A stretch of 64,000 nucleotides of DNA, taken from Paraphysomonas bandaiensis (taxonomy: Eukaryota > Protista > Chrysophyceae). The translations under genes were made by a program, and so were the position numbers. Numbering within the stretch: position 1 is the first letter of the stretch; each line of letters begins with the position of its first letter. The notes under the pieces are model-generated. The model searched no databases and had not been told where the DNA came from. It worked only from the letters and a program-made list of their open reading frames with translations. This document shows, one piece after another, positions 8,040 to 35,497 of the stretch. The stretch lies in assembly GCA_965644295.1 (NCBI GenBank), contig CBFFRP010000298.1, positions 186,001 through 250,000 on the forward strand, in the 5' to 3' direction.

Positions 8040-8359
8040 TATTGACTAATGACCATTTTCAGATGATTAAGATCGTTGTAAGAGAAGTTTAAGTTAGTCA
8101 AACTAGATAGATTACTTTATTATGATTGTATACACAATTGTGTGTGTTGTCATGTAACACATGTCAACAACATGATAAATTATTTCGTTCATGTCAACCA
8201 CTGCTCAACTTCCGTATCTTGAATCGTCATGATATAATACTTCAGTTTCACAGTTATAGCTATATAGCACCTTTGACTATTGGCTACGTATTACTGTTTT
8301 TCACATTGTATTTAACGTATTCTACAGTACTATCTTAGAGAACCATACGTATTCCAACA
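8040..8359 (-). repeat. copia-1 3' LTR
   Basis: Matches 35436-35755. On the minus strand it is preceded by the PPT (8360-8370) and its ends are TGTTG...CAATA. Confidence 0.95.
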
Positions 8360-8527
8360 CTCCTCCTCAATGTAGAAACGAGTAATCGTCGTTATACTGC
8401 AGCTATATATATATCATCTAGTCATCTTAGGATAAAACGGATGTGAAAATCTTCATAAAGATACTGTGAACATCACACTTCGCTGTAACACAGTTATGTG
8501 GGATTCTTACCCACTAAAAACACACCC

Positions 8528-9336
8528 TTAACCTTTCTTGAACCGCTTCTTCTGATTCTTCTCAACTTCATTTGAAATGCTCCTCTTTTCCCCTGTGATA
8601 GTTTCTTCATGGAGTTTAAAGAGCTTTGTAGATAACGCTTTTGTAAATATGTCGGCCGCCATATCCTTAGTCGATACATGAATCAATCTGGCTGTAGGAA
8701 ATCCTCCATTTACGTGTTCCCGAACCCAGTGGTACTTTATCTGAATATGTTTTGATCTTTTGTGGTAGACTGGATTTTCTGACAGATCTTTTGCACTCTT
8801 GCTGTCCATGAAGAATGGGGTTGGCTTCGTCAATGCGAGTCCTAGCTCTCGTAACACCCCCCGTAGCCACACCAGTTCTTGCATGGCCGCATATTCTGCC
8901 ATATACTCGGACTCCATACTGGAAGTTGCAACTGTAGTCTGCAGTTTGGACTGCCATGCGATTGCTCCAGCACATAAGAATACAATATAACCGGTAGTTG
9001 AACGTCTCGTTAGTATATCACCTGCCCAGTCCGCATCACTAAATACATGTAAATCAAACTTACTCCCACTGAATTTGATTCCTTTGCTGGTGGTGCCTCT
9101 CAAATATTTCAATAAATGAATAGCTAAACGACACGATGCGTATGTAGGATTACTGCTGTATCTCGATAGTAGTCCGATTGCATAGGCGAGATCTGGTCTT
9201 GTGTGGAGTGCGAGATACAGGATTGCTCCAATACTACTACGATACGGAAATTTTGAGACCCATTCCTCCTGTTCTGATGTAAGTTCCCGTTCTGCAGCTA
9301 GTAGTTCTTGTGCATTTGATGGCAACGGAGCTTCCT
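8528..9336 (-). pseudogene. pol: copia-1 pol C-terminal part (end of RT + RNase H), cut off by the insertion
   Basis: PYRSSIGAILYL..TRPDLAYA, FSDADWAG..TRRSTTG, SSMESEY, RSKHIQIKYHWVRE and ADIFTK motifs. Confidence 0.93.
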
Positions 9337-10176
9337 ACACACAGAGAGGCCGAAGGACCGAGGGGCGCTCTTGCCGCTTAGGCATTCTTCCTGAGCCAGA
9401 AGGGCTCTCGTATCGTAATAAAACTTCGTTTTATTACTCTTTCCTTTTCACTCTATCTTTAAATATAATTATATTAATAATACTATACTTTAAATAAAAA
9501 TTAATTACTTTATATAATATTAAATAATTATCTTATAATAAAATAAAAATATAGTTTTGGCATTTTGGCTTTCTGGCATTTTGGCTTTTATGAAAATTAG
9601 AAAAAGTTATAAAATAAAATTTATTATATAGTTTATGTTATAAAAAGCCAGTGCCAAAATGCCAGTTGTGGTGGTGATGATGATGGTGGTGTTGTAACAG
9701 TGATGGTGATGATGATGATGGTGGTGTTGTAACAGTGATGGTTATGTTATAAAAATCCAGTGCCATAATGCCAGTTTCTATTCAAAATATTTTTTCAAAA
9801 TAATTTATCAAAAATATTTATTCTATTCAAAATATTTTTTCAAAATAATTTATCAAAAATATTTATTCTATTCAAAATATTTTTTCAAAATAATTTATTC
9901 TATTCAAAATAATTTTTACGTTATTACCAATTAAAAAATTATTAAAAAGCAAAATGGTTTAAAGAGATAATTTTACTCCAACGAAGATTTAAAATGCCTA
10001 TTTTAAATCTAAGTTGGGGTACAACCCTACACAGATTATAAAACGCTTTAGGCGTTTTAAATCTGCACGGGTGTAAAAAGGCCATGAAAGATGTCAAAAA
10101 GAAAAAACGGATGAAGGTTAATAAATAGTTGAATACACACACGCAACAAACAATAAACAAAATAGTTTTAAAAAAT
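9337..10176 (+). repeat. Left TIR (840 bp)
   Basis: Starts ACACACAGAGAG and is the reverse complement of 30726-31566, with about 5 differences seen. Confidence 0.95.
9777..9915 (+). repeat. 45-bp tandem repeat within the left TIR
   Basis: Unit tctattcaaaatattttttcaaaataatttatcaaaaatatttat, 2 full copies plus partial copies. Confidence 0.85.
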
Positions 10177-14007: not shown

Positions 14008-15020
14008 TTATTTTGATTGTAATCATTAATCATATCTTGAAATCCATCTTCAATTAAGTTTTTCTCAGGTTCCCATGTGCTCTCATTCTTTCTGTAGTTC
14101 TTCCACCATATCAAATATTCAACTTTTTTCTTTTTTGTTCTCTTTCCAATAATTTTATATACTTCATATTTTGTTTCGTCTTCATCTTTAGCTTTCATGA
14201 GTTCATATTCAGAGTAAGATGTATTAGGTAATCCTTCTAATATATATCTGTAATAAGGTTTATCAGTGAAAGAAACAACTCTTATAATCTTCTTTGGTAT
14301 TTGTGAATATCTATAATCACCAACACGAAAATTTTTCGTATTTTGTTTATGTCCTAAAGCATTTTCAGGAGTGTCAAGCTTCTCATAAACAACATCGCCC
14401 ACATTATATTTTGCTTTAATAGAATAGTTAATGAATCCAGGTTCATTAACTGTTAAATTTTCTCTGAATTCATTTAAATCTTTTCTAACTATTGGTATTA
14501 TATCAGTCCATTCGCGAAATACTTTCTTTGTTTCTTTCTCTTTTTTATTCATATAACCATTAAAAAGTCTTGCTAATTGCTTATTTAGGGCTTCAACATT
14601 AGCCATTTGTTTATGTCTATTGGGTAAAGCGACTTTATGTAAAATTGAATTATCATGTAAGTATTTGAAAAAGACACCTTTAAATTCATTTCCGTCATCA
14701 GTTCTTATAGAAGCATAAGGTTTATCAATATATGGTCGTTTAAAGCATTCTTTCATAGCATTTAAGACAGTTTGAGAATCTTTATTCTTAATTGGTTCAA
14801 TGTCAAATCGTCTACTGAATAAATCACATATAACGAAACAGTATCTATATCCTTTTGAAGTTGTAGGAAGTTCCAATAAATCAGCCATCATATTATAATT
14901 AGCTTTTTGAACTGTATTCTTTCTAATGCTATTAAATTTCTTTTGTTTCTTTCCTTCTTTTGTAAATGTTTCATCAATATTTAGTTTCTTTATTATGTCG
15001 TTGAATGATTTCTTATTCAT
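14004..15020 (-). CDS. Retroviral-type (rve) integrase with C-terminal chromodomain
   Basis: DDE triad MMADL / IRTDDGNEF / ANVEALN. The chromodomain reads YEVYKIIGKR....VEYLIWWKNY...STWEPEKNL. Confidence 0.92.
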   Translation of the reverse strand: MNKKSFNDIIKKLNIDETFTKEGKKQKKFNSIRKNTVQKANYNMMADLLELPTTSKGYRYCFVICDLFSRRFDIEPIKNKDSQTVLNAMKECFKRPYIDKPYASIRTDDGNEFKGVFFKYLHDNSILHKVALPNRHKQMANVEALNKQLARLFNGYMNKKEKETKKVFREWTDIIPIVRKDLNEFRENLTVNEPGFINYSIKAKYNVGDVVYEKLDTPENALGHKQNTKNFRVGDYRYSQIPKKIIRVVSFTDKPYYRYILEGLPNTSYSEYELMKAKDEDETKYEVYKIIGKRTKKKKVEYLIWWKNYRKNESTWEPEKNLIEDGFQDMINDYNQNN

Positions 15021-15119
15021 ATATATTATGTGTATATATAAAATATAAAATATCTATTTGCTTAATTTTATATAAAGTCATTTAAAAAAATAAAAATATA
15101 TAGTATTATTATAACATAC

Positions 15120-15326
15120 ATGAATAAGTCAGAAAAGAATATTGCTTATCAAAAGGAATACTACAAGAAGAATAAAGACAAACTAATAGCTTATAATTGT
15201 AAAAAAGTCAAATGTGAATTATGCAATAGGGAAGTTTGTAAAAACAGAATTAAATTACATTACAAAACGGCATTATGTAAGAGAACACAAGAAGAGAAAA
15301 AGATGATTGAAGAAAGAAAGAAATAA
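15120..15326 (+). CDS. Small zinc-finger protein
   Basis: KEYYKKNKDK...CELC...H..T..C pattern, with the shared upstream motif. Confidence 0.7.
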   Translation: MNKSEKNIAYQKEYYKKNKDKLIAYNCKKVKCELCNREVCKNRIKLHYKTALCKRTQEEKKMIEERKK

Positions 15327-15382
15327 ATTAATAATTATTATAAAATGGTTTAAAAACTTATAAATATATATATATTATTATA

Positions 15383-15889
15383 ATGGCTGAAGAATGGAAA
15401 GTGATTGATGGATACAACAATAATTATAGTGTATCAAATAAAGGAAATATAAAGAATAACAAGACAAATAAGATATTGAAGCAAGCTATAAATAGAGACG
15501 GATATAATAAACTTTGTCTCTCTATGAATGGAAAGAAAAAAACAATTGATATACATAGATTGGTTGCAATGGCTTTTATACCAAATCCAGAAAATAAGCC
15601 TTGTGTAGACCATGTAAATAATATAAAAACAGACAACAATGTCAATAATTTGAGATGGGTTACAAATTCAGAGAATAATTATAACCAAAAGTTAAGCAAA
15701 GCAAATACATCTGGCGTGAAAGGAGTGTCTTATAACAAAAAAGATAAGAAATGGAGAGCGAAAATACAATTAGACGGCATTTCAATTCACCTTGGAAATT
15801 TTGACACAATCGAAGAAGCAAAACAAGCAAGAATAAAAAGAGCAAATGAAGCATTCGGAGTCTTCATAAATGCCTGTGAAAGAGAATAA
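15383..15889 (+). CDS. NUMOD4-HNH-AP2 homing endonuclease-like protein
   Basis: EEWKVIDGY..YSVSNKG (NUMOD4), HRLVA.AF...VDH.N..K.DN..NNLRWVT.SEN (HNH) and SGVKGVSY....KKWRAKI......HLG.F....EA..AR (AP2). Confidence 0.9.
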   Translation: MAEEWKVIDGYNNNYSVSNKGNIKNNKTNKILKQAINRDGYNKLCLSMNGKKKTIDIHRLVAMAFIPNPENKPCVDHVNNIKTDNNVNNLRWVTNSENNYNQKLSKANTSGVKGVSYNKKDKKWRAKIQLDGISIHLGNFDTIEEAKQARIKRANEAFGVFINACERE

Positions 15890-16219
15890 GAATCCTACAT
15901 AACAATAACAATGAATATAATGAATACGACACATATAACCAAACAAAGACAATATACCTGATATGCACTCATAATGACATCATATTTCCTTTATTTCCAT
16001 GCTTGTTATATATCACAATGATATAGACACAATGACAATGAATATTATGAATGAATATATATATAATGTATATATATACTCGTAGACACATAAACAACAC
16101 AACAGCATCACAACAACAACACAACATACACACCAACACAACAAACAACACAAAAATACAGAAAATATACAGACTAAAAATATTACATTTATATATTTAA
16201 ATCATGTCATCACGTATTA

Positions 16220-16438
16220 GGAAAGACGTTTGGAGTCGTTCCGGATGAAATAGTCTGTGGCGGCAGATGAAATAATCTGGTTCGATTCCCTATGCCGCCA
16301 CATTGAAAAAAGGCGTTTTTCTGAAAAAAAATGGAACTCAAATACTGTTAATGCTAGGCTTGGACCACATTAACACACATGAGGGTTCCAAACCATTTTT
16401 GGGGGAATTCCTTTACAACAATGGTTTGGAATCCTCAT
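16220..16438 (+). ncRNA. Candidate structured non-coding RNA with Pol III B-box
   Basis: GC-richer island in the only long intergenic gap. It has GGTTCGATTCC at 16279-16289, a 10-bp stem 16256-16265/16293-16302, a T5 run at 16316-16320 and a 19-bp stem 16379-16397/16420-16438. Confidence 0.4.
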
Positions 16439-16630
16439 AGCACCCATTTTGCTATAAAATAATCTTGAAAAGTCCCAATTTTGCTAAAACAAAACGACAA
16501 AATCCCAATTTTTATATAAAAACCTTGATTTATATAAAAAACCTTAATTTTAGAAATAAAACCCCCAATTTTTTTAAAAACCCTCAATTTAATTATAGAA
16601 TATAATAATGTTGTTGTATTATATATATAG

Positions 16631-18373
16631 ATGTCAATTTATACAAAGCCGAAAACAAGCAATAATGCCATTTTCAATGCAGAAAATCATAAACAGATTG
16701 AAACAGCAAGAGTAATATTAAATATGGCGGAATATGCAAGATTAGACAATGCTAAATTTACAGCGAACGTTGAAATCTTGAATGGTAATAACTTAACCAT
16801 AAACAATGAACCCCAAACAGTTGCTTTCACAGATTCAAAAAATAATATGTTGTCAGATATGAATACAAGATTATTAAACCTCACTGGAAATGAAATACAA
16901 ACATTAGACGGTATAAATACCAATGAAACTATACAATCACAATTAGATACATTGACAGCAAGTTTTAATGGTCTTGATGCTCTCCAAGATATAGACTTAA
17001 TTAATATACCGAATTTACAAACGGATGTGGCAAATTTACAAGCCCAAGATATAGCATTACAGAACAATATAAATTCTAAACATGATATAATCGATCTGAA
17101 TAATAAGTTATATTCTTCATTAGTGTATGATTCAACAGAATTAGACACAATAGATAATATTATTTCTAGTTTGAAGACTCAAATAACAAGTAATGATACA
17201 GACATAACAAACTTACAAAGTGACAAACACGATTTAATAGATGTAAATAACAAGTTGGATTCTGGATTAGTTTATGACTCAACAGAATTAGACACAATAG
17301 ATAATATAATTTCTAGTTTGAAGACTCAAATAACAAGTAATGATACAGACATAACAAACTTACAAAGTGACAAACATGATTTAATAGATGTAAATAACAA
17401 GTTGGACTCTTCATTAGTGTATGATTCAGCAGAATTAGATACAATAGATAATATAATAGTAAATTTACAAGGTCAAATAACAAGTAATGATACAGATATA
17501 ACAAACTTACAAAGTGATAAACATGATTTAATAGACGTAAATAACAGGTTAGATTCTTCATTAGTATATGACTCAACAGAATTAAACACAATGGATAATA
17601 TTATTTCTAGTTTGAATGCTCAAATAACAAGCAATGACACAGATATAACAAACTTACAAAGTGACAAACATGATTTAATAGATGTAAATAATAAACTTGA
17701 TTCATCATTAGTTTATGACTCGACAGAATTAAACACAATGGATAATATTATTTCTAGTTTGAAGACTCAAATAACAAGCAATGACACAGATATAACAAAC
17801 TTACAAAGTGATAAACATGATATAATCGATGTAAACAATAAATTGGATTCATCTTTAGTTTATGACTCTACATTTACTGATACAATTGATAACTTGCTAA
17901 GTACAATAGACGGCAATATTACAACACTTGAAAATACAAAATTGAATTTAACAGGAGGAACAATGACAGGAAATATAACAACTAAACAAATAAGCGAATC
18001 CATCAGCACAACATATACGTTTTCTTCAAATGTGTTGACATATAATTATAGCAATGGTTCAATCATATATTTCAATGGTTTAACAAGTGATACAAATTTT
18101 GAACTTGATATAACGAATATTAATTCAAGTAACTTAACAAATACTTCTTTCACAGTGTCAGTTATAATAGACACATCAACATATAAGGCATATATAAACA
18201 CTTTAAAAGTTAATACAGTTTCAGAAACGTTGAATGTGTCAGGAGGACTCGCAAATATTAATGTAGACGATGTGACAACATCAGGAGCAATATTACAAAC
18301 AATAACAATAATATATACTAATTCAGGAACATCACCAACGAAAGTAATATCAAATATAGGTTCATATTATTAA
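16631..18373 (+). CDS. Fibre-like virion protein with 49-aa tandem repeats
   Basis: 147-bp repeats start at 17078, 17225, 17372, 17519, 17666 and 17813 (partial). It has an LTGGTMTGNI fibre-type motif, a beta-rich C-terminus and an N-terminus shared with 28313-29368. Confidence 0.7.
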   Translation: MSIYTKPKTSNNAIFNAENHKQIETARVILNMAEYARLDNAKFTANVEILNGNNLTINNEPQTVAFTDSKNNMLSDMNTRLLNLTGNEIQTLDGINTNETIQSQLDTLTASFNGLDALQDIDLINIPNLQTDVANLQAQDIALQNNINSKHDIIDLNNKLYSSLVYDSTELDTIDNIISSLKTQITSNDTDITNLQSDKHDLIDVNNKLDSGLVYDSTELDTIDNIISSLKTQITSNDTDITNLQSDKHDLIDVNNKLDSSLVYDSAELDTIDNIIVNLQGQITSNDTDITNLQSDKHDLIDVNNRLDSSLVYDSTELNTMDNIISSLNAQITSNDTDITNLQSDKHDLIDVNNKLDSSLVYDSTELNTMDNIISSLKTQITSNDTDITNLQSDKHDIIDVNNKLDSSLVYDSTFTDTIDNLLSTIDGNITTLENTKLNLTGGTMTGNITTKQISESISTTYTFSSNVLTYNYSNGSIIYFNGLTSDTNFELDITNINSSNLTNTSFTVSVIIDTSTYKAYINTLKVNTVSETLNVSGGLANINVDDVTTSGAILQTITIIYTNSGTSPTKVISNIGSYY

Positions 18374-18374
18374 A

Positions 18375-18500
18375 AATAATTTATTCTATTCAAAATATTT
18401 TTTCAAAATAATTTATCAAAAATATTTATTCTATTCAAAATATTTTTTCAAAATAATTTATTCTATTCAAAATATTTTTTCAAAATAATTTATCAAAAAT
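18375..18500 (+). repeat. Internal copy of the 45-bp TIR repeat
   Basis: Same unit as 9777-9915, located immediately after the fibre stop codon. Confidence 0.85.
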
Positions 18501-18545
18501 ATATAAAACAATTTAAAAAAATATTATATATATATATTATATATC

Positions 18546-24072: not shown

Positions 24073-24114
24073 ATTGTATAATATATACTTAGATTATAAA
24101 ATATTTTATAATAA

Positions 24115-24335
24115 ATTATTTGAAAAATTATTTTGAATAGAATAAATATTTTTGAATAGAATAAATATTTTATAATAAAATATTTTGAATAGAATAAATA
24201 TTTTTGATAAATATTTTTGAAAAAATATTTTGAATAGAATAAATATTTTTGATAAATATTTTTGAAAAAATATTTTGAATAGAATAAATATTTTTGATAA
24301 ATATTTTTGAAAAAATATTTTGAATAGAATAAAAT
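24115..24335 (-). repeat. Internal array of the 45-bp repeat upstream of MCP
   Basis: tattttgaatagaataaatatttttgataaatatttttgaaaaaa x3 (24181-24315) plus partial units. Confidence 0.88.
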
Positions 24336-24338
24336 ATT

Positions 24339-24638
24339 CTATACTTTTAAATTAGCAAATTTTTTTAATCTTTCCATTGATACATTGTTTACACTCTGAA
24401 ATAACTCATCTTTGGTTCTCTCTTGTCCTTTCCCTTCTGTTCTTGGTTTCACCTTAATACTAATTAGTTTATCACTTAAACTTATATTAGGTTTCTTTGT
24501 GTTTTCCACTTTCTGTTTATGTTCAATAATTACGTCTTCTTTTATCTTATCTTCTTTTGTTTCTTCTTGTATTTCTTTTCTATGAGAAGGAATTACTTGT
24601 CTTCTCATTGTTCCACCTATCATTTTATAATATGACAT
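24339..24638 (-). CDS. Hypothetical basic viral protein (99 aa)
   Basis: ORF between mCP and MCP with an N-terminal MIGG. Confidence 0.65.
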   Translation of the reverse strand: MSYYKMIGGTMRRQVIPSHRKEIQEETKEDKIKEDVIIEHKQKVENTKKPNISLSDKLISIKVKPRTEGKGQERTKDELFQSVNNVSMERLKKFANLKV

Positions 24639-30725: not shown

Positions 30726-31566
30726 ATTTTTTAAAACTATTTTGTTTATTGTTTGTTGCGTGTGTGTATTCAACTATTTATTAACCTTCATCTGCTTTTT
30801 CTTTTTGACATCTTTCATGGCCTTTTTACACCCGTGCAGATTTAAAACGCCTAAAGCGTTTTATAATCTGTGTAGGGTTGTACCCCAACTTAGATTTAAA
30901 ATAGGCATTTTAAATCTTCGTTGGAGTAAAATTATCTCTTTAAACCATTTTGCTTTTTAATAATTTTTTAATTGGTAATAACGTAAAAATTATTTTGAAT
31001 AGAATAAATTATTTTGAAAAAATATTTTGAATAGAATAAATATTTTTGATAAATTATTTTGAAAAAATATTTTGAATAGAATAAATATTTTTGATAAATT
31101 ATTTTGAAAAAATATTTTGAATAGAAACTGGCATTATGGCACTGGATTTTTATAACATAACCATCACTGTTACAACACCACCATCATCATCATCACCATC
31201 ACTGTTACAACACCACCATCATCATCACCACCACAACTGGCATTTTGGCACTGGCTTTTTATAACATAAACTATATAATAAATTTTATTTTATAACTTTT
31301 TCTAATTTTCATAAAAGCCAAAATGCCAGAAAGCCAAAATGCCAAAACTATATTTTTATTTTATTATAAGATAATTATTTAATATTATATAAAGTAATTA
31401 ATTTTTATTTAAAGTATAGTATTATTAATATAATTATATTTAAAGATAGAGTGAAAAGGAAAGAGTAATAAAACGAAGTTTTATTACGATACGAGAGCCC
31501 TTCTGGCTCAGGAAGAATGCCTAAGCGGCAAGAGCGACCCCTCGGCCCTTCGTCCTCTCTGTGTGT
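30726..31566 (-). repeat. Right TIR (841 bp)
   Basis: Reverse complement of 9337-10176; ends CTCTCTGTGTGT. Confidence 0.95.
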
Positions 31567-34398
31567 TTCCTTATTCTTTCTACTGTTTCCCATGACATGG
31601 TTGAATTTCTGAATCACTTTCTCCGCATACTTCGATTGATCTAGTTTGAACCAGTCTTCGCCTCTCGTGATTCGAATATTTAGGAAACTTTGGCACTCTC
31701 CCATGTCCCTCATTTCAAACGTTTGGCAGAACTTGTTCTTGACAAAAACAAGGAATTCAAAATCCACAGATGCGATAATGATGTCATCTACATACAGGAG
31801 TAATAACATAAGTTTGCCTTGGTGCCAACGATAATATAAGCAGGTATCTAACACGCATGATCTAAACTGCATTGACTTTATGAATTTATCGATGTGGCGA
31901 TTCCACTGACGCGGTGAGGCTCGTAAACCATATAGTGCTTTGATGAGTTTAAAGCACCATCCATTGCTGAGCTCCTCATCTGGAGGTGGGTACATGTAGA
32001 CATCTTCATCTAAATTTGCATAACAAAATGCAGAACTGACATCAAGCTGGTGTACATGCATATGGAACATAAAAGCAATTGCAATCACGAGCCTGATAGT
32101 TATCCCTTTTACGACCGGTGCAAATGTAGATGGCTCCTCCTCAGTTTTCTCCTGAAGATTTCCTAGTGCGACTAGTCGAGCTTTATACTTCTGTATGTTG
32201 CCTAGTATGTCACGCTTGAGTTTGTGAACATACTTACATCTGATTAATTTGACCCCAGATGGTCGACGTACTATCTTCAAAACGCCTCTTCGTAAAAGAG
32301 CTTTCTTCTCTATTCGTCTGGCTGTTCTCCATTCGTCCGCTTGAGGGGACCTTTCCGCCTCTAGAAAACTGTTCGGTTCATGGACGTGTTTATTCTCAGT
32401 ACTCTCCTCTGAATCCATGACATTTACATCGGCATCCATTACCTCTATCATGTTAATTTCTCCTAACACTGAAGCATTAGCTAGCCTCCTCCGTAAACGC
32501 TTACGTTTCTCTGCATCCCTTTTAGATACTCTCTGTAGGGTATTAGTACTGTTAGAATTTATAGTATCAGTATATTCAGGTACTCCCTGAGCTGCATCTT
32601 CATCAAGTACTCCTTGAGTCATATCTTCATCAGGTGCTCCCTGAATAATACCATGGTTAACTAGCTGCTCCTGATGGCTCTCAGGCGCTGGGATAGTGGA
32701 CGTACTCCGTCCATCAGTGGTACTAGAGGCGTCCCTCGTTCCCGTATATCCCGTGTATCCAGGCGTATTCCTTGTCATTACCTGAACATCTTCTATATGT
32801 ATGGGTACCTTCTGCTCAATGTGGGTTCTCCCCGCAGTTACAAGTGACCGATAACCAACAATGACACCCTTTCTTTCTACCACTCTGGTGGTCTTGTACA
32901 ACAGCCCGTCTTCATCGTCTATGTGAAAAGTCTTCACGAGATGCTGATAATCATTCACCGTCTTTGGTCTAGGTGCTGTTCGTACTCGGAGAGCGTCGAT
33001 TTCTGCGTAATATTCTTCGGTGCGGGAAGGTATACTCTCATCTGTGAGTATGTGTACACACGTAATTACCTTATCGGTTGCTGGGAGATACACCTGGTAT
33101 CCAACTTTATCTTCCGAATATCCCACTAGGTATCCAATCTTTGATTTATCGTCCCAGTCCTTTCGCCTGTCCGCCTTAGGTGTCAATATATAAGTTTTGC
33201 ACCCCCATACTCTAAAATATTTCAAACTGGGTGGCTGACCCGTGACATACTCATATGGGGACATGTATCCTCTGTCCGTCCTTGTAGGGAGTCTGATCAG
33301 TGTATAGCGAGCAGCATGATACGCGTCTAACCAGAATGGAACCGGTAGGCCTGACTGCAACAACATCGCCAACGCCATCTCTGATGCAGTCCTGAATTTT
33401 CGCTCCTCTACTGCATTCATTTCCGGACTATCTGTTGAAGACCAAGTATGTTTGTAGCAGCCTTGTGATCTCAAATAGCTCCTAAGTTCTTGATTTATGA
33501 GTTCTCCAGCTCCATCAGCGTGGTAGTGGTCCACTCTCAGCTTATATTGCCTAATCTCTCCTTCGAACACCTCTCTAAAAAACTGAATCACTTCTTCTTT
33601 AGTACGCTGGTTTACGCCTTTTACCCAGAACATCCTACTCGGGTGATGAGTTAGTTTGATCACGTAGCGCTCATCACCTCGAGCGGGAGTATTCAGAAAT
33701 ACTTGCACATCAGCCGATATGTCCGGCTTGACATCCGTATCCTCCTTTGTGTGAAACGAAACTCTCGTAATCTTTGATCTGGCACATATGCTACAGAGAC
33801 AAGATTTTTTTAATTCAGTCTTCGATAGGTGCTTCCTCTGCAGATTTGAGCCAGTGAACAACATCCTTCTATGTGCCTCCGTTAGAGCCCCTTTGTTGAA
33901 ATGGCCCATTCTCCTATGCAGCAGTTCCAGCTCGTCCTCACCAGTCCTATCGCTAAGATTTACTTCACAATTACTCGGTGTTGACACATCTGGAAGCTCC
34001 AACAGCTGCTGAGTTGGAACTGCAGTCATTCCATTCTTCATGGGTCCCTCCAGTACCAGCTCACCGGTATTACAGTCATAAATTTGGATCCCATACCACA
34101 CCGTGAATCGATAGCCCATTTCGTTCAGCTTACGTCCGGAGCACAGGCATCGATTGATCTGATCTGAAATTTCTATGTCTCTCCATGCTCCACGGGAACC
34201 CACACTTGTGATATGAATCTCTGATCCCTTCTTAGATCCGTTTATCACCTTTGATGTATTCATATGAGTGTCAAGCATGGTCACATCATTCATTAAGAAC
34301 ATTGATGATGAACAGCATGTATCTATGTATGTATAGTGTTCAGCAGTACCAATCATACAACATGTGTCACTTATCATATATATCAACAGCGCAGTCAT
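31567..34398 (-). pseudogene. pol: copia-1 pol N-terminal part (PR, INT, most of RT), interrupted
   Basis: YIDTCCS (protease-like), LLHRRMGH...CSIC, HADGAGE/ERKFR (integrase), KYKARLVALG, HQLDV..AF, LYGLR and LYVDD. Confidence 0.93.
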
Positions 34399-35497
34399 AA
34401 AGCATATTCGCTTCGGACTCCGAGTCAGACTCGGTTCCTCCTCTGCGGATATTCTCGAATGTGAAAACCTTCCCAGATTTCTGGGGTTTCTTGGTCTTTC
34501 CAGTCGAATTTCGGGGACATTCGTTCGCGCGATGGTTTTTGGATTTGCATACTCTGCATCCTGTATATTCCTTACTGCCCGGTCTTTGTCCCTTCGTTTC
34601 CCCCTTTTTCTTCCTACATTGTTCTGTATTATGATTGTGTATTATACCTTTCTTCGAGCAATAAGTGCACTTCCTCTTTGTAGATACTCTCTCTTTCTTT
34701 CGAGGCTTTTCAATATGATTCAGCTCCTCCGTGCTCTTGCGCTTCTTCTCTATGATTTTCCTCCCATACTTGGTGTCGTCGAACTGTTCGATACGTTTGG
34801 ATAGCAATTCATATGGTACATCATCGGGCATTAAATACAGGGCATAATTCAAACCGTCATATTCATCACTGATAATTCCCTCCTTCAGCCTACTAATTTT
34901 TGATTCTTCCGTTACCGTTTGGTTATGCGCCTGAAGTTCACGAAGAAGCAGCTCAAAACGCAGTACATACTCTTTCGCGGTCTCCCCTGGCTTCATCTCG
35001 AATGATCCAAACTGAGCAAGCAAAGCACTAATCTTGTTTTGTGTTCCCCCTTCAAAACACGATTTAAGAGTGCTAACCATCTCTCTGGCGCTGAACTTAT
35101 TAACTCTTCCTTCAGCTGCCTTGAACTCCTTGTGCTTCAGATGAAACTTCTGCAGCGCCTTCGGAGATCGCTTCACCGCCTCTCTGCAGTATGAGTAAGC
35201 AATTGCATTCGCCTTCCAATACTTGTCCACCGCTTCTTTGTAGGACTTGGTCTCAAGACTATTCAGGGGTTGAATTCCGAAATCCTCTTCCTCTGGTGGC
35301 CTTTCTAGAGCCACCTCACTCTGCTCCTTTCTCATAAGGAACGTCTCAAAGTCTTCGATCCATTGTTCAACGTTGCTCTCGTCGAACCATGGAACATCAG
35401 CTCTATCCTCCTTCTCTCCTCCGCATTCGCTACCATATTGACTAATGACCATTTTCAGATGATTAAGATCGTTGTAAGAGAAGTTTAAGTTAGTCAA
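34367..35497 (-). CDS. gag: copia-1 gag
   Basis: MKPGETAKEYVLRF (UBN2-like) and two zinc knuckles (CTYC......H....C; CRVC....H....C). The ORF begins within the LTR and reads through the PBS. Confidence 0.85.
   Translation of the reverse strand: MTNLNFSYNDLNHLKMVISQYGSECGGEKEDRADVPWFDESNVEQWIEDFETFLMRKEQSEVALERPPEEEDFGIQPLNSLETKSYKEAVDKYWKANAIAYSYCREAVKRSPKALQKFHLKHKEFKAAEGRVNKFSAREMVSTLKSCFEGGTQNKISALLAQFGSFEMKPGETAKEYVLRFELLLRELQAHNQTVTEESKISRLKEGIISDEYDGLNYALYLMPDDVPYELLSKRIEQFDDTKYGRKIIEKKRKSTEELNHIEKPRKKERVSTKRKCTYCSKKGIIHNHNTEQCRKKKGETKGQRPGSKEYTGCRVCKSKNHRANECPRNSTGKTKKPQKSGKVFTFENIRRGGTESDSESEANMLYDCAVDIYDK
35427..35435 (-). promoter_or_regulatory. Primer-binding site (probably tRNA-iMet)
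   Basis: TGGTAGCGA abuts the 5' LTR; the same 9-mer occurs in copia-2. Confidence 0.75.

Follow-up and report, generated by a model that had tools for sequence, protein, structure and literature searches.

A candidate Pol III-type structured RNA with an internal B box in an integrated Polinton-type virus

Endogenous Polinton-like viruses (PLVs) and virophages fill many protist genomes and have been assessed mostly via their protein genes. The systems that come closest to the locus described here include the adenovirus VA RNAs I and II (Rfam family RF00102). According to PMC4378190, VA RNA is both a Dicer substrate and a PKR decoy, and RNase Z processes the TMERs, in which a tRNA is joined to pre-miRNAs. 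The promoters of EBER1 and EBER2 are of type 2, and to their A and B boxes they add further elements upstream, among them a TATA-like box (PMC8223928, PMC4378190). From PLVs and virophages themselves, tRNA, 5S and other Rfam-type RNAs are reported, and PMC12220804 counts 558 tRNAs in 8,300 genomes. In two supplementary files of the same source, RF00102, vault, EBER and SRP RNAs gave no match. An earlier note on the DNA analysed here had been aware of no host-Pol III small RNA described from a Polinton-like virus: this has to be qualified, given the tRNA and 5S genes that PMC12220804 reports from PLVs and virophages. On a non-tRNA Pol III RNA of a Polinton-like virus we found no paper in a search with most subscription journals outside its coverage. 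If the candidate described below holds up, Rfam and ARAGORN screens of PLVs miss RNAs of this sort.

The virus that carries the candidate occupies positions 9337-31566 (no strand assigned) of a 64-kb window, by which we mean the whole stretch of DNA that was analysed. It is an intact endogenous Polinton/Maverick-type virus of 22.2 kb with 27% GC, terminal inverted repeats (TIRs) and a target-site duplication (TSD): the TSD at its ends measures 5 bp, the inverted arms are perfect over 815 nt, and the non-coding TIR ends are ~870 nt long each. Its 23 ORFs encode an rve integrase-chromodomain protein, an A32 packaging ATPase, an adenain-like protease, a D5-like helicase, an HNH-AP2 nuclease and a 562-aa capsid protein, whose model (pLDDT 86.5, from a 43-sequence alignment) has its closest PDB neighbours in the mavirus and Sputnik capsids (E 4e-13, 8-11% identity). 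An ORF of 504 aa, with no Pfam hit, is presumably pPolB, judging by family B polymerase motifs that were picked out by eye. TIRs, TSD, rve integrase, A32 ATPase, protease and double jelly-roll capsid make up the full set of features by which we assign the element to the Polinton/Maverick type. It has split a copia retrotransposon in two, and the copia pieces on both sides (31405-35452 and 8528-8917), together with identical repeats at 8040 and 35436, suggest that the insertion was recent. The flanks resemble compact eukaryotic genes with short introns, near-identical DNA is present in marine and hydrocarbon metagenomes and in several organisms, and the host is probably a marine protist.

Strong hairpins lie within the TIRs at ~9980-10070 and, in mirror position, at ~30835-30925 (z -4.8 and -9.0), and a 45-nt AT-rich tandem repeat, possibly a protein-binding or origin site, recurs in both TIRs (9758-9924, 30959-31171) and at two internal intergenic sites (18366-18505, 24099-24341). 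The plus-strand gene of a NUMOD4-HNH-AP2 endonuclease (15383-15889), upstream of the gap that holds the candidate, is missing in some copies and forms a removable insert (15324-15937): one contig of sequencing run X17 joins 15323 to 15938. Variants of this HNH gene are many, 80-90% identical, with depths of 500-1,500 in likely-RNA runs. On the other side of the gap, ORF 16631-18373 encodes a fibre-like protein of 580 aa with 147-nt (49-aa) tandem repeats. The module is preceded by a CA-rich tract (16082-16175), and ORF 16631 by several CCCAATTTT-type repeats (16443-16595).

The gap itself (15890-16630) is with 741 nt the longest between the 23 ORFs, the runner-up measuring 266 nt, and no other 100 nt of the element are as rich in GC as the island within it (47% versus 27% overall). 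Both a long gap and a GC-richer island had been claimed in the earlier note, and the motifs that it had named were all confirmed in place: a 16-nt stem-loop in two copies (16242-16257 and 16264-16279), a perfect 10-bp stem (16256-16265/16293-16302), a run of five Ts (T5) at 16316-16320, and a perfect B box (GGTTCRANNCC), GGTTCGATTCC, at 16279-16289 on the plus strand, which is the sole strict B box in the window. On the 3' side of GGTTCGATTCC, 5 nt from the T-loop closing C, a 7-nt acceptor-like strand (16293-16299) is followed by A16300. Two of the proposed structures stood only as letters. A 5' hairpin (16220-16227/16235-16242) is present with seven of its eight pairs but is absent from the predicted RNA fold, and the stem-loop copies are there but in the predicted fold make up the arms and the internal loop of a rod. 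Over 64 kb a strict B box by itself is not rare, turning up in 30 of 100 shuffled windows. When the element was shuffled it arose 11 times in 300, and when the gap was shuffled 21 times in 5000; a B box together with the acceptor geometry arose 6 times in 5000 shuffled gaps.

The combination of a B box with T-loop and acceptor geometry suggests descent from a captured tRNA gene. That the island is nevertheless not a tRNA, as had been stated, was confirmed: ARAGORN called none, no Rfam tRNA match appeared at E up to 10, and the sequence has neither D nor anticodon arm, a T stem of 3/5 pairs, and 12 nt between acceptor strand and T stem. The Rfam search of the island gave nothing near the gathering score, and the VA RNA covariance model was absent among the 6 and 11 Rfam matches at E up to 10. 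Weak Rfam matches to miRNA and snoRNA families were dropped, their scores being far below gathering, as were, by eye, hammerhead and C/D-box readings, whose core motifs are incomplete; a bacterial promoter scan stayed at chance level and is irrelevant here. Within the window, no second copy of the module was found in the other 42 kb of host DNA, no flanking target-site (direct) repeat was found around it, and its complementarity to possible targets does not go beyond 12 nt.

Folding of 16205/16215-16322 gave z scores of -3.3 to -4.0, with none of 200 shuffles as stable. The predicted minimum free energy (MFE) fold contains a rod hairpin (16232-16289, plus strand) of 19 pairs, four of them G-U. 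Its three helices (7, 6 and 6 bp) are separated by a tandem U-U loop and by a symmetric 6x6 internal loop, GAAAUA/GAAAUA, and it is capped by an apical loop of 4 nt. In this model the module does not appear as a plain inverted duplication, because the arms of the rod are inverted copies but its loops are direct copies. Modest support for a plus-strand RNA comes from the four imperfect stem positions of the predicted rod, which are all G-U on the plus strand and non-standard and unpaired on the minus strand; with DNA folding parameters the rod is not the best fold. The alternative is a tRNA-like fold (16256-16302, plus strand), in which the 10-bp acceptor-like stem encloses the T-loop and a broken T stem. 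Rod and tRNA-like stem are predicted to be mutually exclusive, the MFE being -34.8 kcal/mol with the rod versus -29.0 with the 10-bp stem forced. The tRNA-like stem would win only in an RNA that starts near 16250-16257, for which the pair probability of the 10-bp stem is 1.0, versus 0.00-0.02 for a start at 16205-16220. A terminal stem between the 5' and 3' ends, which in VA RNA accompanies a long apical stem, is part of the best fold when the RNA reaches at least 16321 and lies 1.8 kcal/mol above the best when it ends at 16320.

Behind the first T5, a second hairpin domain (16332-16390, plus strand) with 8-bp basal and 8-bp upper stems would be part of a read-through form. It is followed by a 19-bp hairpin (16379-16438, plus strand; z -7.0), which overlaps a second T5, lies mostly at background depth, and could serve as a terminator, belong to a precursor from which processing takes it away, or be a palindrome of the DNA. 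Of the two variants recorded within its stem (16432, 16433), each still pairs, as read by eye. In a single variant contig of run X16 both arms beside the apical loop of the rod are changed and, by eye, still pair with one bulge, and the apical loop and the B-box side are kept; being one event in one contig, this is not a covariation test.

Depth was profiled over 14900-17000 in four of 24 matching runs: X15, X16 and X17, which stem from one organism and three studies, and X18, a poly(A) marine metatranscriptome recorded as RNA. X15 and X16 are RNA by guess only and X17 is flagged 'probably DNA'; we regard all three as very probably RNA runs, because they contain few of the element's words (a share of 0.13-0.23, versus 0.64-0.67 in three other runs of the same organism) and are under half the size of those other runs. 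Measured as summed, flat contig depth, which is a poor measure of expression and blind to ends and strand, the means over 16249-16319 and 16320-16390 were 126,304 and 55,635 in X15, 3,596 and 11,569 in X16, and 5,067 and 13,119 in X17, with 40-144 over ORF 16631 in the same runs. The ratio of the peak to ORF 16631 was 1,319 (X15), 205 (X16) and 257 (X17), in runs guessed to be RNA, and that to the multi-variant HNH gene 153, 28 and 12, respectively. Depth rises within 16178-16319 and is back to background after ~16390; all five bins over 14900-15254 are empty, which alone proves nothing.

Among the runs, all from a single organism, the peak ratio varies by a factor of six, and this spread suits expression more than copy number. 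Sequence running on into unlike DNA amounts to only 1%, 7% and 1% of what was aligned in the three runs, the module contigs extend along the viral flanks, and several variants of the module occur within one organism, the variant contigs diverging after 16356. A-only loose ends after 16311, found in 5 contigs of X15 and 2 of X17, suit a plus-strand RNA, although the same picture would arise from a copy whose interior contains a single long A run. X18 has no peak (depth ~5); its 266-nt contig, which aligns to 16177-16330 with 23 changes and 1 gap, appears to be a diverged homologue of the module. Abundant sequence is thus placed on the module and the hairpin behind it, and it is likely that abundant RNA comes from the module while the neighbouring viral protein genes stay low.

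The earlier note had proposed a plus-strand RNA that ends, after ~60-100 nt, in the first U run. Support was found for a structured plus-strand unit that contains a B box, alongside a very strong depth peak in the three likely-RNA runs and a diverged copy in X18, but not for the proposed length or for a simple end at the first T5. In X15 the depth is 6,897 at 16231 and 133,561 at 16278 and still 61,019 at 16323, then 5,747 at 16377 and 143 at 16432; in X16 and X17 it is higher past the T5, exceeding at 16323 the value at 16278, with its maximum around 16323 and none before 16249. Contigs cross the T5 and carry A-run length variants behind it. Since much of the signal passes the first T5 towards the second, we infer a transcribed unit of ~180 nt, not only 60-100, and place the candidate RNA gene at 16219-16400 on the plus strand, with putative ends that give ~100 nt to the first T5 and ~180 nt by read-through. 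The first T5 (16316-16320, plus strand), between A runs at 16306-16311 and 16324-16331, would be a leaky Pol III stop, and the second (16396-16400, plus strand), before or at which the signal fades, would end the long form. For yeast Pol III, PMC9278858 gives five Ts as minimal and six as needed for fairly efficient termination, so that read-through of a T5 is compatible with Pol III, on a rule that is that of budding yeast and may not be the host's. Oligo(dT) selection would also enrich transcripts that read through, as their A run is longer.

On the promoter side, a TATA-like hexamer (16190-16195, plus strand) stands ~30 nt upstream of the putative start, and the diverged X18 contig, which aligns from 16177, retains this stretch. 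The hexamer is not diagnostic, because the same kind of AT-rich motif precedes most genes of the element; a 14-codon ATG frame (16204-16248) follows it. The best A-box candidate (16218-16228, plus strand) is weak, with 1 mismatch to TRGYNNARNNG and 62 nt before the B-box G, and would need a start near 16205-16210; it is one of five with at most 2 mismatches in 16190-16270. The A-box-like letters in the 10-bp stem are merely 22 nt from the B-box G. The internal B box of a type 2 Pol III gene is present, and Pol III transcription of the module is plausible from its letters.

Conservation in related elements, which the earlier note had looked to for support, was not found. Starting from 74 capsid homologues we compared 27 related loci with 28-49% capsid identity, a set that leaves out the two closest capsids (92% and 71% identity); most of the loci are partial, and L155, L145 and L146 cover ~85-90% of contigs of 23-25 kb. 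By B-box scan, BLAST, ARAGORN and a one-sequence covariance model (a weak model, best E 1.2), the module is in none of the 27. An intergenic strict B box occurs in none of them, two relaxed matches lying in partial contigs without the module (L160 and L164); ARAGORN found no tRNA in any of the 27, and Rfam gave no match at gathering score in the 8 that were scanned. The closest of the 27, L155, is nearly complete and has in the matching neighbourhood just an AT-rich gap of 202 nt. Given that none of the 27 relatives, L155 included, carries the module, the RNA is not essential to the clade; so far the module seems confined to this lineage and near variants.

Pattern scans of IMG/VR returned at least 120 stretches, with no B box in those checked, a further 12, none of them module-like, and 11 that are GC-rich contigs without the module, and a downstream 17-mer matched 81 stretches, none with a B box within 110 nt upstream; these pattern matches are chance or phage. 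The strict stem plus B-box pattern was found in no metagenome contig, IMG/VR yielded no relatives by capsid alone or by close alignment, and phage records gave no match to the module. One of the related loci, L144 (15,234 nt, 46% capsid identity), is a Polinton-type contig inside a bacterial metagenome-assembled genome and probably mis-binned; the module search in that genome bin gave only short chance matches. Another, L168, has intergenic stacked hairpins at ~8360-8640, which are without a B box and unlike the module.

The island is real and structured, and it is probably transcribed at a very high level, probably by Pol III. As its best explanation we regard, with moderate confidence, a lineage-specific Pol III-type viral RNA that works like the VA and EBER RNAs. 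TFIIIC would bind the internal B box, aided by the upstream TATA-like element and the weak A box, and plus-strand transcription would start near 16205-16220, part of it stopping at the first T5 (~100 nt) and part continuing to the second (~180 nt). The 5' domain would fold as the rod, with its 5' end able to pair with the first U run, and removal of the 5' part would switch the rod to the tRNA-like stem. The resulting RNA would be a protein-binding decoy that looks like dsRNA, most likely for RNA-silencing or dsRNA-sensing proteins of the host; such a function, analogous to that of VA RNA for Dicer, is put forward only tentatively. Possible, though on the whole doubtful, is the far-reaching version, in which a dormant endogenous Polinton/virophage-like virus of a marine protist uses host Pol III to express, at the level of the cell's top transcripts, an RNA from a structural family that is new: a pseudo-twofold rod, switchable to a tRNA mimic, whose internal loop is GAAAUA/GAAAUA. 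Such an RNA would correspond, in protists, to the VA and EBER RNAs, and its target would be host silencing or a giant virus that co-infects the cell.

The same Pol III gene could have another product, if the transcript were a TMER-like precursor whose tRNA-like stem is the site where RNase P and/or RNase Z cleaves, freeing the 16332-16390 hairpin for Dicer. The layout of tRNA-like stem, hairpin(s) and T5 is in keeping with this, as are X16 and X17, with no depth before 16249 and their maximum around 16323, the dominance of the 10-bp stem once the 5' part is gone, and variants whose differences fall towards the top of the 3' hairpin. However, D and anticodon arms are lacking, the T stem is broken, neither ARAGORN nor Rfam calls a tRNA, at full length the RNA favours the rod, in which the tRNA-like stem is lost, and the 5' drop in depth is also expected from a reverse-transcriptase stop at a GC stem; we hold such a precursor to be unlikely. 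We are likewise rather sceptical of a captured multi-copy host Pol III gene or SINE, in which case most of the signal would stem from copies in the host or reflect DNA copy number. Capture of tRNA and rRNA genes from hosts does occur in PLVs (PMC12220804), the module is missing from the 27 relatives, GC-richer than the virus and present in several variants in one organism, and X17 is flagged as probably DNA. Yet the window's other 42 kb of host DNA hold no second copy, neither a flanking target-site repeat nor an Rfam family was found, and the contigs follow the viral flanks, with little sequence entering unlike DNA.

Alternatively, Pol II or a giant-virus-type polymerase might produce an abundant polyadenylated ncRNA from the usual AT-rich promoter, ending at the 19-bp hairpin, and the B box would be a relic; hairpin-directed polyadenylation occurs in mimivirus and Sputnik. 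The upstream motif shared with the protein genes points in this direction, together with T5 read-through, A-rich loose ends and the strong 3' hairpin, and PMC11464507 reports ncRNAs with high expression from megaviruses and a suspicion of such RNAs in transpoviron TIRs. But the depth over genes that share the motif is 12-fold to more than 1,000-fold lower, the A tails follow the templated A run at 16311 and not the hairpin, and the B box is kept perfect, with the X16 variant aligning through it, and we judge this origin improbable. A purely DNA-level element, be it a cruciform, an origin or a TFIIIC-bound insulator with no meaningful RNA, would suit the palindromic arms and the other non-coding hairpins in the TIRs; it is very improbable in view of the depth peak over the module, the G-U rather than random mismatches, and a rod that is not best with DNA parameters.

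If the module does encode a lineage-specific Pol III-type viral RNA, some elements of this kind would be transcriptionally active through a small RNA even as expression of their protein genes remains low. This would provide a handle on element persistence and on host protection versus manipulation. Viral Pol III RNAs (VA, EBER, TMER, BocaSR) would then extend from vertebrate viruses to a protist virus. The generality of such a finding is limited by the absence of the module from relatives; the candidate is directly testable in a cultured host.

As the candidate would be, the adenovirus VA RNAs I and II are highly structured and very abundant Pol III RNAs, ~160 nt long and with an internal promoter, and adenovirus belongs to the same broad virus lineage as the Polinton. 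In contrast to VA RNA, the candidate has no Rfam match, lies in an integrated element, is not clade-wide, and has a host that is probably a protist; we know of no PKR-type target in protists. EBER1 and EBER2 would resemble it as abundant structured Pol III RNAs with high output while viral protein genes are quiet, but they come from an unrelated virus and share no sequence or Rfam similarity with the candidate, for which no conserved homologues were found. With the TMERs of MHV68 it would share a tRNA-like 5' part followed by hairpins and Pol III transcription, RNase Z processing being a trait of the TMERs. These keep a canonical A box and tRNA-like structure, whereas the candidate has a weak A box, a broken T stem and a precursor predicted to prefer the rod; its acceptor-like stem and T-loop are present but fold only in a 5'-shortened RNA. 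The tRNA and 5S genes of PLVs and virophages are, as such genes are in general, Pol III genes, and would in this respect be similar to the candidate as Pol III-type genes within Polinton-like genomes. They are Rfam or ARAGORN matches, with no expression reported in the available portion of PMC12220804, whereas neither tool detects the candidate. A Pol III product from a small DNA virus is also known in BocaSR, the small RNA of the parvovirus human bocavirus 1, which acts in viral DNA replication (PMC11194592). The candidate appears to belong to none of the VA, EBER and TMER families, and by analogy it would work most like the VA and EBER RNAs.
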